Shown here piece after piece: positions 18,433 through 29,597 of a stretch of DNA of 40,887 bases. Location of the stretch: the IMG/VR virus record IMGVR_UViG_3300048895_000086, positions 1 to 40,887 of that record. One strand, given 5' to 3'. The translations under genes and the position numbers were made by a program. The number at the start of each line of letters is the position of its first letter. Within the stretch, counting starts at the first letter, position 1. Under the pieces are notes generated by a model, which did no database searches, was not told the origin of the DNA, and saw nothing but the letters and a program-made list of their open reading frames with translations. Source of the stretch: a virus. Lineage: Duplodnaviria; Caudoviricetes.

Positions 18433-19092
18433 TTAGAAAATAAGGTCATAGCGATTGAATACTTCTTCAATTTCCATTATGGCTTTTTTCCCGAACCTTT
18501 CAAGTTTGTAGAAGTTTACTTTCCCATAGCACCAAACATCACGCCATGTCTTTAATTTATGCTTATGTAAAAGGTTGGCGAGCCTTACCGTTGTTTCTTC
18601 ATCCCAAATTAAATGTGATAAAAACTTCTCTTGCTCTTCACTAAATAGCTGTTGTGAACCAGTATTGCATTCTACACCCGATATATTGACAAAAACTTTT
18701 TGTTTTGCAGATTCTTTTTCTAACTTTCTTAGAGTGATCTTTAGGTTTTCAATTTCATAGGTAAAGTTGCTTATCTTTTTCTCTAAAGCATCCAATTTGT
18801 CATAAACCTTATCCGGATCAACTGCCCATGTTCCTTTCGCAAATTTGCTCATCAGCTCTTGAAATGTGGCTAAAGTCTTATTCAAGCCAGCGTCATCAAT
18901 TCTTAGAGGCGTTTGGGTTAAATTCTTTAAAACATTAATGAAATGTGGATCTACATATTGAGAAAGGTTTTGCAAAGGGATGATCATGTTAATGATATGC
19001 GCCTCTAATGCTGAGAGTTTCCGATGGATCTCTCCTATTTCGTCTCTTTTTGTAGGCATCAATGTGTTAATATTATTTTCTGTGGATATCAT
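18433..19092 (-). CDS. Coiled-coil protein with C-terminal RNA polymerase alpha-CTD-like domain, 219 aa
   Basis: TVRLANLL...RD...FGKKAIMEIEEVF aligns with alphaCTD TVRSANCL...GD...LGKKSLTEIKDVL. Confidence 0.75.
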   Translation of the reverse strand: MISTENNINTLMPTKRDEIGEIHRKLSALEAHIINMIIPLQNLSQYVDPHFINVLKNLTQTPLRIDDAGLNKTLATFQELMSKFAKGTWAVDPDKVYDKLDALEKKISNFTYEIENLKITLRKLEKESAKQKVFVNISGVECNTGSQQLFSEEQEKFLSHLIWDEETTVRLANLLHKHKLKTWRDVWCYGKVNFYKLERFGKKAIMEIEEVFNRYDLIF

Positions 19093-21987: not shown

Positions 21988-22139
21988 TCGTCTTTATCCC
22001 AGAGTTGTATCGTTCTATAAATTTGTCCAAGCTCAAAAGCTGCCTTTATATTAAATTCATTCTGCATGGAATTTCTTACGTTAATTAAGCTTTCCGATAA
22101 ATATTCTAAAAGCTCTATTTCGTCATGTTTTGCAGTCAT
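21984..22139 (-). CDS. Helical-hairpin mini-protein, 51 aa (MTAKHDEIELLEYL...MQNEFNIKAAFELGQI...)
   Basis: Hand-translated; ATGA overlaps; GAGG RBS. Confidence 0.7.
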   Translation of the reverse strand: MTAKHDEIELLEYLSESLINVRNSMQNEFNIKAAFELGQIYRTIQLWDKDE

Positions 22140-22330
22140 TTTTCCTCAAATTCTTGTCCATTATTTTCATCCATTTTGATAAAGCATTTGATTTGCTCAA
22201 GCCTTCCGCTAATTTTCCCAAGTAAGAAAGCGCAGCCTGCAACGTTTGTATGTGTAGTGTGATCGCCTAATTCCTCAACAGCAAAACCAATATCGTCTAT
22301 AATTTCCTGTACTTCTTCAGAGAGAGTCAT
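22136..22330 (-). CDS. Helical-hairpin mini-protein, 64 aa (...GCAFLLGKI...)
   Basis: ATGA overlaps; GAGG RBS. Confidence 0.7.
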   Translation of the reverse strand: MTLSEEVQEIIDDIGFAVEELGDHTTHTNVAGCAFLLGKISGRLEQIKCFIKMDENNGQEFEEK

Positions 22331-22569
22331 TTTTCCTCAAATTCTTTAACTTGATTACACACATGCTCACATTGCTCAATAATCGCGTCTAGCCCATCAC
22401 TTCCAAAATGCCGATTGTGTATCGTACAGTCTAGCACGTCAAAAAGATATTCTAAAAGCTCCCTAAGTTCGCAAATAGCATCTGTGTCCGGCTGAGTCGA
22501 TAAAAGCTCAAGAGCAGCCGTGCAACACTGTATCATAGCTAGCGAGTGATGATCAATGTATGTTGTCAT
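22327..22569 (-). CDS. Small helical Cys/His-rich protein, 80 aa
   Basis: Shares ELLEYL and EFEEK with neighbours. Confidence 0.7.
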   Translation of the reverse strand: MTTYIDHHSLAMIQCCTAALELLSTQPDTDAICELRELLEYLFDVLDCTIHNRHFGSDGLDAIIEQCEHVCNQVKEFEEK

Positions 22570-22718
22570 TTTCCCTCAATTATTTCTATGATTTCAAATT
22601 GAGACAAACGCCTAAAGTTAGCATCAAAAACTAGGGTATCATGACAATTTTTATCATAAAAAGAGGGATTATTTGCACAAAATTGTCTTATAAGATTATC
22701 TTCTTCTTCGTTTGTCAT
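22566..22718 (-). CDS. Hypothetical 50-aa protein (MTNEEEDNLIRQFC...IEGK)
   Basis: Hand-translated; ATGA coupling on both sides. Confidence 0.6.
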   Translation of the reverse strand: MTNEEEDNLIRQFCANNPSFYDKNCHDTLVFDANFRRLSQFEIIEIIEGK

Positions 22719-23625: not shown

Positions 23626-24063
23626 TCACTCCTGTCTTTCTACCCATTCATGCATTTTAAACCCATAATAAATATTCAATACTGAGCTAAAAGCCTTAGC
23701 AGAGATGTATCCTTTAGTCGTTAGAGTGTCAAAAATATCCTCAACGAAAGTGCTGTCAAATCTTTTATTCTCTTTTGCAAATTTAAATATCTCATCAAAA
23801 ATAAACCAATTTTCATCGTCCAACGTCAATGGAATATCAATATCTTTGTATTTTCCTGGCCTAGATTTTTTAACTTTTTCTTTTTCTTCTTTCTTCTTAT
23901 TTTCTTTAAACTCTTTAAAATCAGACTTTTCCATAAATAAGTCATATTCTTCCTGCAAAAGAATCATTAGTTCCGTTTCTCCTCCGGCATCTGGATGAAG
24001 GATCTTAGCTAGCTTACGGAATAATTTTTTAGCGTCATCGGCTGAATTACATTTATGAAACAT
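23626..24063 (-). CDS. J-domain (DnaJ-like) protein, 145 aa
   Basis: AKKLFRKLAKILHPDAGG..ELMILLQEEY: helix II-HPD-helix III. Confidence 0.85.
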   Translation of the reverse strand: MFHKCNSADDAKKLFRKLAKILHPDAGGETELMILLQEEYDLFMEKSDFKEFKENKKKEEKEKVKKSRPGKYKDIDIPLTLDDENWFIFDEIFKFAKENKRFDSTFVEDIFDTLTTKGYISAKAFSSVLNIYYGFKMHEWVERQE

Positions 24064-24913
24064 TTTTTTCCCACCATCTGCCTTCGAGAGTTTTTCTCAG
24101 ATATCCAATAATATTTGTTATCGGTTTATTTTTTTCTTTCATCTTTGGGATCATTTTTTGCACATAGCCGGAGGCTAGGGAAAGCTCTTGTTGTGAAAAA
24201 TTTTGAGTAATTGTTGAGGCTCCAAGGATATCGCAGCCCATTTGCATTAGCCAATTGAACATTCTTGTTTGCGAAGAAACAACAGAATCCACTGGATCTG
24301 AAGAACAGACAGAAACGGCCTCAGCCGTGGAGTGTTGTTCTTTATACAGGGGAGTATTAGAACAAGATGTATTAGTTCGCTCACCTGGTGAGTCACTCCT
24401 TCTAGAGTCTGGCTCATGTGGTGAGTCACTACCCCCATCTGGCTCATGTGGTGAGTCAGTACTAACCTTATTCTTTTTCAAAAAAAAGAATGCACGGTTG
24501 TAATTCCAAATATTTTTTATCAAGGTCTTGTGATAAATGTAGCCAATTTTTTTACCTTTCACCTCTTTGACTTTTTTATGCTCAGTAATTGAAATAAGAG
24601 GGTTTCCATCCAATTGATGAAACTTTTGTTGAAGTTCCTTTTTGCACTTTATGACTGCGCCTTCGCTCATATTTGCAATTTCTGCAAGATTTTCGGTATT
24701 TCTCCAACAAACATTTTCATTTCCGGCAATGCTTCGCATGACTGTGTAAAGGTGGCATGCAAATACGGAAAGTCTTTTTACAATTTTTTCTCCCGTTTTT
24801 TCATCAATTTCATCATATGTTAGATGATCTATGACATTAGGGCGCATTGTGTAATTGCTTGGCTCTGAATTTTCAAGGGCAAAAGCATATTGTTCTGCTA
24901 GAAGTGGTTCCAT
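24053..24913 (-). CDS. Replication initiator (winged-HTH, lambda O-like architecture), ~286 aa
   Basis: CWRNTENLAEIANMSEGAVIKCKKEL HTH, internal iterons in the linker, C-terminal IIGYLRKTLE..W. Confidence 0.8.
   Translation of the reverse strand: MEPLLAEQYAFALENSEPSNYTMRPNVIDHLTYDEIDEKTGEKIVKRLSVFACHLYTVMRSIAGNENVCWRNTENLAEIANMSEGAVIKCKKELQQKFHQLDGNPLISITEHKKVKEVKGKKIGYIYHKTLIKNIWNYNRAFFFLKKNKVSTDSPHEPDGGSDSPHEPDSRRSDSPGERTNTSCSNTPLYKEQHSTAEAVSVCSSDPVDSVVSSQTRMFNWLMQMGCDILGASTITQNFSQQELSLASGYVQKMIPKMKEKNKPITNIIGYLRKTLEGRWWEKNVS
24379..24461. repeat. Three iterons; putative replication origin
   Basis: GCTCA(CC/TG)TGGTGAGTCA at 24379, 24412 and 24442 (33- and 30-bp spacing), each with a CTCA..TGAG dyad; AT-rich tract follows. 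Confidence 0.8.
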
Positions 24914-25020
24914 TAGCAAGCCCCCCCAAAAAAATTGACATAAAAATTAGGGATTGTGCTAAATTTGGGTAGCATGGTAGGCTGGTTGAGCCTCAAGGCA
25001 AGTTGATATATAGAATACAT
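24913..25020 (-). CDS. 35-aa leader peptide coupled to the initiator (MYSIYQLALRLNQPTMLPKFSTIPNFYVNFFGGAC)
   Basis: GAGG RBS; its TAA overlaps the initiator ATG (TAATG). Confidence 0.55.
   Translation of the reverse strand: MYSIYQLALRLNQPTMLPKFSTIPNFYVNFFGGAC
24935..24965 (+). promoter_or_regulatory. Antisense promoter
   Basis: TTGACA and TGc-TAAATT extended -10 (19-nt spacer, suboptimal). Confidence 0.5.
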
Positions 25021-25185
25021 GTTTCCTCAGTATTTGTTGATAAAGGGCTGTGGATTGACTACATTTTATTTTACCTCCTTGGCGTTTAGATAGTAATCGT
25101 TGGTCTATTTCGATTACTCTTTTAAGTACCTGTTTTCTCTCTCTTACGAAGCGCCCCACTCCCACAATCGGGGCGCTTTTCATTT
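24972..25185 (+). ncRNA. Predicted ~210-nt countertranscript antisense to the initiator leader
   Basis: Plus-strand promoter and plus-strand terminator with no plus ORF of 60 aa or more in the track between them. Confidence 0.5.
25149..25185 (+). terminator. Intrinsic terminator
   Basis: AAGCGCCCC-12 nt-GGGGCGCTT followed by TTCATTT. Confidence 0.65.
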
Positions 25186-25194
25186 CACTCGATC

Positions 25195-25223
25195 ACTCTA
25201 AATCTTCTAAATATTCTTATCAA
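25195..25223 (-). promoter_or_regulatory. Promoter for leader/initiator mRNA
   Basis: TTGATA-17-TAGAGT. Confidence 0.55.
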
Positions 25224-25233
25224 TCGAAAAGCA

Positions 25234-25321
25234 TTGCATAAAAATTCTTTAAAAAGTAGGATGGCCGCATCTTGTTAGGTATGGTGAATACCCTTTCCCC
25301 GGTCGTATGCCGGGGTTTTTT
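25234..25321 (+). ncRNA. Promoter plus ~55-nt sRNA plus terminator (OOP-like position)
   Basis: TTGCAT-17-TAGGAT; GGTAT/ATACC hairpin; CCCCGG-7-CCGGGG-T6 terminator with a U-tract only on plus. Confidence 0.6.
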
Positions 25322-25323
25322 AT

Positions 25324-25566
25324 TTATGAACCTAAAGCTATTTCTTCCATTGGATCATTCTGAATTTCTGGCTTAGTCTCCGGAAATGGAAGAATTTCAG
25401 CCAAAGTCACTTTTCCATTAGTTGCCCTTTCTAAATCTCTAGCAAACCACTTGCTTACTTTTTTGCCAGCTTTAGCAATCGTTATCTGCGCTCTGCTGCA
25501 CCCTAATTTCTTTGCTAACTCAGAGCTAGTGATCTTATTAAAATACATATAGTCACATAGTTTCAT
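25324..25566 (-). CDS. Cro/YdaS-like HTH regulator, 80 aa
   Basis: ITSSELAKKLGCSRAQI...ARDLERATNGKVTLAEI. Confidence 0.88.
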   Translation of the reverse strand: MKLCDYMYFNKITSSELAKKLGCSRAQITIAKAGKKVSKWFARDLERATNGKVTLAEILPFPETKPEIQNDPMEEIALGS

Positions 25567-25582
25567 GGTGTCCCCCTATTTT

Positions 25583-25680
25583 TGGCTACACTATACATGT
25601 ACGACATATTTTAGCCAACTGAAAAGATTTTCCTATTTTAACTGTTGACGATAATCTAGCCATGTGCTATATTTTAGCCA
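25583..25680. promoter_or_regulatory. Divergent early promoters with four TAGCCA boxes (putative operators)
   Basis: Minus TTGGCT-17-TATAGT; plus TTGACG-17-TATATT; boxes at 25583 (inverted), 25612, 25657 and 25675; ATATTTTAGCCA twice. Confidence 0.75.
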
Positions 25681-25688
25681 TATTAAGC

Positions 25689-25750
25689 ATGCTTCCTGGT
25701 GGCCGAAACGAAAGAGTTCGGCAGGTTGAGCGGTTTAGGTAGAGAAGTGT
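25689..25750 (+). ncRNA. Structured leader of the early rightward operon
   Basis: ATGCTTC/GAAGTGT outer stem, GCCGAA/TTCGGC inner stem. Confidence 0.4.
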
Positions 25751-25782
25751 CCAAATTACAGTAATTAAATAGAGTAAACGAT

Positions 25783-25968
25783 ATGAATGAAATTCAATGG
25801 GGCCAACGAAAAGGCGGCTACTGTCTTACGATTAGACAAATAAACAAAGTGAGAGGTTACGAAATTAATTTTTTTGAGGATGGCGGTTGGCCGACAGTCT
25901 TAGGTTTTGTAAAAACAAGAGCAGAAGCGAAAAAAATTATCCTAAACCACATGAATAAAATAAGGTAA
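25783..25968 (+). CDS. Hypothetical early protein, 61 aa
   Basis: First ORF after the strong promoter. Confidence 0.65.
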   Translation: MNEIQWGQRKGGYCLTIRQINKVRGYEINFFEDGGWPTVLGFVKTRAEAKKIILNHMNKIR

Positions 25969-25974
25969 GTACAC

Positions 25975-26157
25975 ATGAGAACATACGTTTTAAACAGCTT
26001 CGGTAACGACTGGACATATCAGGCAAATAGCAAATCTGAAGCTACAAAAGAATTCCTCAATCAAATGGGGTTAGACACCATGAAAGATTACGCCCATTAC
26101 TGCAAAGTTTGTGGTGTGCCGAGCAAATTGGACTTTAAAGAGATTGTGAAAAAATAG
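25975..26157 (+). CDS. Hypothetical early protein, 60 aa
   Basis: TAAGG RBS. Confidence 0.65.
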   Translation: MRTYVLNSFGNDWTYQANSKSEATKEFLNQMGLDTMKDYAHYCKVCGVPSKLDFKEIVKK

Positions 26158-26194
26158 ACCAGTTCACACAATAAAAATTTTGAAAGGAGAGAAA

Positions 26195-26458
26195 ATGGGT
26201 TACGCACCAGAATATTATGATTATCACTATGAGGCTGAAAAGCCTTCAGAGATCCTCGAGATCGAGCAGAAGCTTAACAACTGCCAAGAGTTTTTCGTGG
26301 CTCTATACGCAGAGCTAACAAGCGATAAGCCGTTAGACTTGGCAACGATTTATAATCACATGTCAGAGATTGCCGGATATCTTAATGTCGATGAGCGCCA
26401 ATTCGGGGATCTAAATATCTCAAGGGAATCTAAAATTATTCAATTCAAAGGAGTTTAA
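26195..26458 (+). CDS. Hypothetical early protein, ~87 aa
   Basis: AAGGAG RBS before ATG 26195. Confidence 0.7.
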   Translation: MGYAPEYYDYHYEAEKPSEILEIEQKLNNCQEFFVALYAELTSDKPLDLATIYNHMSEIAGYLNVDERQFGDLNISRESKIIQFKGV

Positions 26459-26459
26459 T

Positions 26460-27116
26460 ATGACTAACCAATCCCCTCAACTCGACCAACTCTTTACAGC
26501 CCTGGCGAAAGCTCAGGGTGAAATGTCCGCAGCAGCTAAAGACTGCGCAAATCCTTTTTTTAAGAGTCGCTATGCAGACCTAAGTTCTGTATGGACAGCT
26601 TGCAGAGAACCGCTTAGCAAGAATGGGCTTAGCGTTCTACAAATCGTTCAATCGAGTGATTTAGGCGATGTATTACACACAACGCTTGGTCATAGCTCTG
26701 GGCAATACATGACGTCTACAATGCCCATCAGAATCAAAACGGGAAATGGTGGCAATGAGTTGCAGGCATTAGGGGCAGCGATCACTTATCTACGCAGGTT
26801 TTCATTAGCTGCAATTGTAGGAGTAGCTCCCGATGATGACAATGATGGAAATGGATCAAGCTATAAAGTACAGCCAAAAGCTGAGCCTGCTATAGTTCCT
26901 GTACCATTTGTTAATGCCGGTCAGCTTTCGTCGCTTAGAGGTTCATTAGCTCAATGTGGAAATGAATTCTCCACAAAAGTTTTAGAATGGCTAGCAACAA
27001 AAGGCGTTATGGCACTTGATAAAATGCCGATCACTTTGTTCGAAGTCGTGAAAAAGCGTATAGATTCTCACTTAGCCAGTGATGAGCCACAAGATGCTAT
27101 AATAGGTGAATCATGA
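26460..27116 (+). CDS. erf: ERF-family single-strand annealing protein
   Basis: NPFFKSRYADL, GAAITYLRRFSLAAIVGVA.DDD.DG. Confidence 0.93.
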   Translation: MTNQSPQLDQLFTALAKAQGEMSAAAKDCANPFFKSRYADLSSVWTACREPLSKNGLSVLQIVQSSDLGDVLHTTLGHSSGQYMTSTMPIRIKTGNGGNELQALGAAITYLRRFSLAAIVGVAPDDDNDGNGSSYKVQPKAEPAIVPVPFVNAGQLSSLRGSLAQCGNEFSTKVLEWLATKGVMALDKMPITLFEVVKKRIDSHLASDEPQDAIIGES

Positions 27117-29526: not shown

Positions 29527-29597
29527 AGCGCCCACTCAGAATCGAACTGAGGTTACCAGCTTGGAAGGCTGACATTTTACCATTAAATTATAGGCGC
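29527..29597 (-). tRNA. tRNA-Gly (anticodon TCC), no encoded CCA
   Basis: GCGCCTA/TGGGCGC acceptor, TCAGC-CTTCCAA-GCTGG anticodon arm, CTCAG-TTCGATT-CTGAG T arm, U73. Confidence 0.93.

Follow-up and report, generated by a model that had tools for sequence, protein, structure and literature searches.

An uncultured group of phages, most of them without an integrase, appears from its sequences to keep, ahead of a predicted replication initiator gene, a promoter-like site that faces backward and a terminator-like hairpin. We analysed this arrangement in the phage genome IMGVR_UViG_3300048895_000086 (40,887 nt; hereafter the window, i.e. the whole stretch of DNA under analysis), which has a 126-nt terminal repeat, its end repeating the first 126 nt, and a completeness rating of 100%. 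In the reading we favour, and hold to be reasonably probable, an antisense RNA limits translation of the initiator; a leader ORF opens the hairpin around the SD sequence of the initiator in this genome, and most relatives use a pre-emptor strand.

The backward promoter-like site and the terminator-like hairpin lie across the initiator leader, where they would give rise to a ~214-nt antisense RNA. In the window, this RNA would block the start of a 35-codon ORF and thereby limit initiator translation, and a ribosome finishing the same ORF would open the hairpin around the initiator ribosome site. In relatives, a 5′ pre-emptor strand would keep the anti-SD strand off the SD; antisense binding would free the anti-SD, which would then close the initiator ribosome site, no peptide being needed. 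The likely purpose would be negative feedback on genome copy number or on replication timing, be it in the lytic cycle or in a carrier state. We found no description of the switch of this phage group in the open-access literature. New here are the controlled evidence that an RBS switch is predicted, the apparent retention of the cassette when initiators are exchanged, and the predicted occurrence of two designs known from plasmids, pSK41-type and R1-type, side by side within one phage group. The comparative evidence predicts that antisense units in the OOP position in this phage group are translational switches on the initiator, in the way that plasmids cap their copy number, and not just lambda-like by-products.

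The predicted antisense unit and the initiator leader in the window

The unit lies in a 410-nt gap separating the cro-like gene from the initiator gene (Table 1). Its plus-strand promoter-like site ranked 13th, and the opposing minus-strand site 67th, among 81,710 window positions (p = 0.01 and p = 0.04, respectively, against local shuffles), as scored with a promoter matrix that, like the 16S tail, is an E. coli-like consensus and may not suit the phage's host. With its unusual spacer of 19 nt, the plus-strand site falls outside the stock promoter scan and is not listed there; likewise, the plus-strand terminator-like hairpin (about −14 to −17 kcal/mol, with an interrupted U tail at 25177–25186) is not listed by the stock terminator scan, whose loop limit is 8 nt. 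An earlier note on this DNA had called both promoters, this terminator and a 35-aa leader ORF whose stop overlaps the initiator ATG, and all four were found in place. From the promoter and terminator positions we infer a transcript that would cover the RBS of the leader ORF (25028–25020). Its predicted fold is not unusually stable (z = −1.5), it matched no Rfam family, no RNA run was found to contain it, and an Rfam search of 24000–26500 returned only one chance-level snoRNA match. Exact-pattern scans of viral contigs gave no match to the promoter and two to the terminator pattern, one of them unrelated, and the leader DNA had no match among isolate phages.

On the sense strand, the initiator starts at an ATG preceded by an SD of −10.5 kcal/mol. 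In sequence and predicted fold, the 35-codon ORF crosses the SD hairpin and ends on this ATG. The computed cost of opening the initiator RBS was 11 kcal/mol in the free leader and 15 kcal/mol with the antisense-covered part blocked. An ATG ORF of at least 35 codons ending at this place arose in 2.9% of shuffles (a chance of about 0.03–0.05), so that the ORF alone is only modestly above chance. A second, 74-codon ORF (chance 0.01 in shuffles) was not supported as a protein gene, being without a homologue, and is probably non-coding. ORFs with an SD that begin ahead of the cassette and extend to the SD hairpin were found in 3 of 39 cases (window, L048 and L065), with about one expected, and could represent a read-through override or chance.

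A freshwater variant contig (run X21, 589 nt) keeps positions 25145–25326 (182 nt) apart from 3 changes and 3 gaps, has 25078–25144 replaced, and carries 20 changes and one indel over 24849–25077. That indel, at 25032, lies outside the 35-codon ORF; within the 74-codon ORF, indels total +12 nt and the frame is shifted in between. Runs X6 and X10–X12 contained no letters differing from the window, with patchy cover only.

As a separate observation, the SD ahead of the start-stop mini-ORF (25080–25059) is near-perfect, and the antisense strand there reads as an anti-SD. Directly after cro, the sequence also holds a possible second small antisense unit, a region that is kept in the freshwater variant contig; tandem antisense units occur in L007, L008, L017, L025, L034, L065 and L105 as well.

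Table 1 Features of the initiator locus in the window, with positions and strand.
Feature	Position	Strand	Remarks
Predicted replication initiator, 286 aa	24053..24913	-	PHROG 19658, E = 1.5e-5 (weak match)
Three 25-nt direct repeats in the linker-coding DNA of the initiator	24375..24462		Spacing 33, 30
Predicted hairpin hiding initiator SD and AUG, −15.6 kcal/mol	24910..24968	-	Folding
35-codon leader ORF	24913..25020	-	GAGGA just upstream, SD −5.6 kcal/mol; TAA overlaps initiator ATG (TAATG)
Antisense promoter-like site TTGACA-19-TAAATT, TG-extended −10	24935..24965 (−10 at 24960-24965)	+	Weight-matrix score
74-codon ORF	24959..25183	-	SD only on read-through transcripts; stop at 5′ arm of SD hairpin
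Predicted antisense RNA, about 214 nt	24972..25186	+	Inferred from promoter and terminator
Very strong SD (−12.8 kcal/mol), then start-stop mini-ORF (ATG-TAG, at 25064)	25059..25080	-	
Terminator-like hairpin of the antisense unit	25148..25186	+	Stem 25151-25157/25170-25176, 12-nt loop
Sense promoter-like site TTGATA (25223-25218)-17-TAGAGT (25200-25195)	25195..25223	-	+1 at about 25188
Possible second small antisense unit, about 53 nt, directly after cro	25234..25322	+	Terminator and promoter TTGCAT-17-TAGGAT, score 6.5
Cro-like HTH gene	25324..25566	-	Promoter-like site 25618-25590

Conservation of the cassette and the predicted ribosome-site switch

Loci were gathered by initiator similarity (34) and by terminase (80); once duplicates and short fragments had been removed, the analysis covered 22–24 leaders of the same family, counting the window, and 31 leaders that precede other initiators. 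Of the same-family loci, 16 of 22 have a strict antisense terminator 50–300 nt upstream of the initiator, as do 18 of 31 loci with other initiators, as compared to 0.2 and 0.4 expected from shuffles and 3 and 1 on the sense strand. Control genes have such a terminator upstream in 19 of 563 cases, and in 16 of 333 when only those preceded by non-coding DNA are counted. Near the RBS, the antisense promoter score averaged 7.76 across 24 loci versus 5.89 ± 0.32 in shuffles (with an E. coli consensus matrix), and the sense promoter before the hairpin was weaker (5.23 versus 4.10 ± 0.40 in shuffles; 21 loci). Three pairs of loci have leaders that are alike and initiators that are unrelated or distant (L075/L076, 98%; L012/L073, 91%; L010/L070, 79%), with the junction near the start codon. 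Judged by these alignments, the antisense cassette seems to persist when the initiator is replaced. Relatives gathered by terminase carry other initiators in this slot, in many cases with a gene for an IstB/DnaC-like loader or a DnaB helicase next in line, and five close terminase relatives showed no match to the initiator family of the window. Three aligned leaders carry two-sided changes in six pairs. Examples of short, self-contained leaders are those of L005, L012, L014, L026 and the window.

RBS opening energies were computed at equilibrium and 37 °C for those 38 of 53 loci that have a findable hairpin, four of which are bulged and come from a looser scan. The mean was 5.4 kcal/mol in the free leader, 10.0 kcal/mol with the antisense-covered part blocked and 9.2 kcal/mol with that part shuffled. 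Blocking raised the energy by more than 1 kcal/mol in 34 of 38 loci and lowered it by as much in none, and in all 38 the real 5′ segment opened the RBS more than the mean of its own shuffles. Control genes in the same test (n = 45) went up in 8 and down in 11 cases and beat the shuffle mean in 21 of 45. A first run with other start picks had given 16 of 21 up and 1 down. The antisense-covered part pairs with the anti-SD region at a mean of −13.0 kcal/mol versus −4.4 kcal/mol when shuffled, and 36 of 39 leaders beat their shuffles, although these 39 form only 29 sequence clusters and the counts therefore overstate independence. Antisense control of the initiator, as suggested in the earlier note, is thus supported at the level of prediction by family-wide conservation and the folding controls.

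The folding model predicts that the majority design in relatives is a pre-emptor switch following the logic of pSK41 RNAI and repABC ctRNA. In pSK41 RNAI/rep (RepA_N) and repABC ctRNA/repC, upstream antisense binding leads to an RBS-hiding or terminator fold, and the origin repeats lie inside the linker region of the initiator gene (PMC5703833 and PMC3155836). The phage family resembles these plasmids in its predicted majority switch, and the window has repeats in the initiator linker that may likewise belong to an origin. Unlike them, the window has no pre-emptor, no RepA_N or RP-C Pfam match and no par cassette, and virion genes are present.

Within the same model, the window is an exception to the pre-emptor design, with its SD hairpin predicted to be shut even in the free leader. 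No pre-emptor strand was found in its leader (−6.9 kcal/mol versus −6.2 kcal/mol shuffled; rank 34 of 39), and in the switch test it seemed significant with 12 shuffles and not with 60 (0.10).

Possible leader-peptide coupling and competing readings

Only three of 53 loci (window, L014 and L043) have an ATG ORF that is preceded by an SD and whose stop overlaps the initiator start, and L021 and L057 have near-overlap leader ORFs ending 7–8 nt short. Thus, of the layout that the earlier note proposed to look for in relatives, the antisense terminator recurs family-wide but the overlapping leader ORF does not. Counts show no enrichment of coupled leader ORFs (2 of 24 including the window itself, versus 0.49 expected), and the leader peptide was rejected as a family-wide rule. 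The peptides of the three loci have no evident sequence in common. Ranked by pre-emptor strength, all three loci fall within the weakest 8 out of 39 (p = 0.011, or 0.027 without the window, in a post hoc comparison). In L014 the predicted switch acts on the RBS of the leader ORF itself (2.8 kcal/mol free and 9.5 kcal/mol bound, with none of 30 shuffles as open); in L043 the folding test gave no switch on the leader-ORF RBS. Since the hairpin of the window is without an upstream opener, the leader ORF likely opens it, and this, together with the L014 switch on a coupled leader ORF, makes leader-peptide coupling plausible in this genome. The earlier proposal of R1 CopA/tap-type coupling hence remains plausible for the window, but not as a rule for the family.

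We read the window as R1 CopA/tap/repA-like because of the missing pre-emptor, the ORF running through the hairpin, the co-occurrence with weak pre-emptors and the L014 switch. CopA RNA is about 90 nt long. In R1 (CopA/tap/repA) and IncI2 (AS RNA/repR/repA), a counter-transcript lies over the leader and initiator translation is tied to an overlapping leader ORF (PMC8053102). The window is similar in that a leader ORF with an SD overlaps the initiator start and the RBS lies in a predicted stem; by analogy, its predicted antisense RNA would block the leader-ORF start. Unlike these plasmids, the window is a tailed phage, and its RNA is about 214 nt long as compared to about 108 nt in IncI2. Unlike in R1, there is no CopA/Inc Rfam match, the initiator is of the HTH_36/O type without a plasmid match in tblastn, and coupling is predicted only.

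An alternative that we consider unlikely is that the initiator is repressed by a genuine antisense RNA, the 35-codon ORF being a chance frame and the SD hairpin being opened otherwise, namely by kinetics, by a weak alternative hairpin of 5 bp, through loading at the mini-ORF SD or through the 74-codon read-through ORF. In favour of a chance frame are the relatives, most of which can do without a peptide, the chance expectation of 0.03–0.05 for such an ORF, the stronger SD (−12.8 kcal/mol) ahead of the ATG-TAG, and the stop of the 74-codon ORF at the anti-SD arm. Against it stand the window's want of a pre-emptor, the co-occurrence of coupled ORFs with weak pre-emptors, the L014 switch on the leader-ORF RBS and, short of significance, a variant contig free of indels in the 35-codon ORF.

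It is quite improbable, in our estimate, that the locus is a lambda pO/oop-type unit whose backward promoter acts in cis, by interference with sense transcription or by activation of the intragenic origin, and whose RNA matters little for the initiator. Such a unit would fit the position, with cro-side genes on one side and, on the other, an initiator gene that contains repeats, and the window resembles lambda pO/oop/tO in having a backward promoter-like site, a predicted short RNA and a terminator-like hairpin directly before an O-type initiator in a cro–initiator block. Moreover, lambda replication is affected by pO activity rather than by the oop RNA, which in its like position has little effect on O or replication and targets the cII mRNA, O–P mRNA stability not being altered (PMC3985674). 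A cis-acting promoter does not account for the specific predicted pairing of the covered segment with the anti-SD strand that 36 of 39 leaders show, in contrast to control genes. The window also differs from lambda in that no cII-like gene was found in the gap and no CI among the ORFs scanned, and in that the RNA would cover the structured leader of the initiator itself.

Very improbable is an IncI/IncB-type mechanism, whose Inc/repY/repZ logic the earlier note had also invoked and in which leader translation would expose CACAAUC for an activating pseudoknot with a GAUUGUG loop, blocked by the antisense RNA: the anatomy is like that of ColIb-P9 (PMC4705826), with an SD-hiding stem crossed by the leader ORF and an antisense target hairpin upstream, and a 7-bp match joins loop 25169–25163 to 24958–24952 in the SD hairpin, but this match has p = 0.07 by length and 0.31 by energy, leaving the pseudoknot unsupported, a value of p ≤ 0.05 is attained by just one of the 38 family loops, on which a family-wide loop pseudoknot was rejected, and the initiator here has a strong SD and AUG, unlike ColIb-P9, which relies on a weak SD and GUG.

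Genome setting and the carrier-state question

The predicted initiator has 45 homologues (36–63%). It was modelled with a folded winged-helix N domain, a disordered, low-confidence linker (152–210) and a helical C domain, and its fold matched replisome organiser and HTH proteins among viral structures (E of about 1e-4), HTH_36 and RepA_N being look-alikes. No RepA_N or RP-C Pfam domain matched the window protein; comparison with the PDB gave nothing by sequence and, by fold, only winged-helix matches at E of at least 0.019, and searches against isolate phages and, by tblastn, plasmids gave none. Sequence and model together predict an initiator of the lambda O or replisome-organiser type. The three 25-nt repeats, announced as iterons in the earlier note and located inside the initiator gene, are likely iterons of an intragenic origin, to judge from their sequence. 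L013 and L015 have three similar repeats at like offsets in the gene, and SPHE-type repeats run throughout the initiator alignment.

The genome carries P22-like portal, large terminase, capsid, RusA, ERF and YqaJ genes. Among the 52 ORFs scanned of 152 listed in the window, none encodes an integrase, CI, ParA or ParB, which bears out what had been said of integrase and partition genes, and no divergent CI gene was found beside the Cro-like gene. Its gene content suggests that the initiator locus is a lambdoid replication block (cro–initiator–RusA), not a recognised plasmid replicon. Separately, the promoter-like sites of cro and of the recombination operon stand back-to-back at 25590–25673 without a repressor gene in between.

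The claim of a phage-plasmid replicon is possible but rather doubtful, given the lambda-O-type initiator within this block, the mostly absent Par genes and the tailed-phage precedents of lambda and P1. The window has virion genes and no integrase, as a phage-plasmid would; a partition system and a plasmid-type replicase, the other marks of one, were not found in the window (52 ORFs scanned of 152). A lack of lysogeny genes is as compatible with a lytic phage as with a carrier. Antisense control of the P1 lytic replicon was reportedly described by Heinrich et al. in 1995, to go by the title, and P1 kilA is a full protein. In that replicon (P53–kilA–repL), the initiator gene contains the origin and takes its RBS from the ORF that precedes it (PMC9948254). 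The window shares with it the tailed-phage context, an upstream ORF ahead of the initiator and repeats inside the initiator gene; unlike the window, P1 also has a separate plasmid replicon and the C1 repressor.

Among 38 near-complete relatives, searched for tyrosine integrases, ParA, S24 and HTH_3, one has a tyrosine integrase and three have ParA over the cut-off; an HTH_3 match was found in 26, nearly always a single one, and the S24 repressor domain in none of the 38. ParA-like (L048 5061–5705; L120–L122) and Xer-like integrase genes (L057 4416–5288; L119) occur sporadically, and it is these relatives that best qualify as carrier-state candidates. Among mycobacteriophages, known temperate members without an integrase carry parABS (PMC7157519). 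We regard as tentative, and somewhat doubtful, the idea that a clade of ~40-kb podovirus-like phages without integrase, CI and usually partition genes persists as an episome held only by the antisense switch, with a portable cassette in pre-emptor and leader-peptide forms that cro-promoter read-through overrides for lytic growth. Such a switch, if integrase-less, CI-less phages do persist by it, would offer them a minimal route to a carrier state.

Terminase, ParA, DnaB, outer-membrane and J-like searches pointed to no host. The only two matches in genome bins, L033 and L034, lie on contigs of 17.5 kb and 37.6 kb, which may be mis-binned phage DNA. U-box and outer-membrane beta-barrel genes are associated with hosts living inside eukaryotic cells. 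A U-box domain gene and outer-membrane beta-barrel genes are carried by the relatives L087 (5277–6095) and L040 (6931–7509) and by four similar loci; by analogy, they hint at a host inside eukaryotic cells.

Of the adjacent J-protein mentioned in the earlier note, a DnaJ match is present but weak (E = 0.013, below the cut-off, residues 6–27 only). A gene flanked by terminase and portal (18433–19092, minus strand) gave a weak match to the RNA polymerase alpha-CTD (E = 0.0009, below the cut-off). A 22-nt repeat recurs at 22134–22155, 22325–22346 and 22564–22585, across the RBS/start junctions of three short tandem genes, and is possibly a recombination unit of gene cassettes. Finally, a tRNA-Gly(TCC) gene lies at 29527–29597 on the minus strand.
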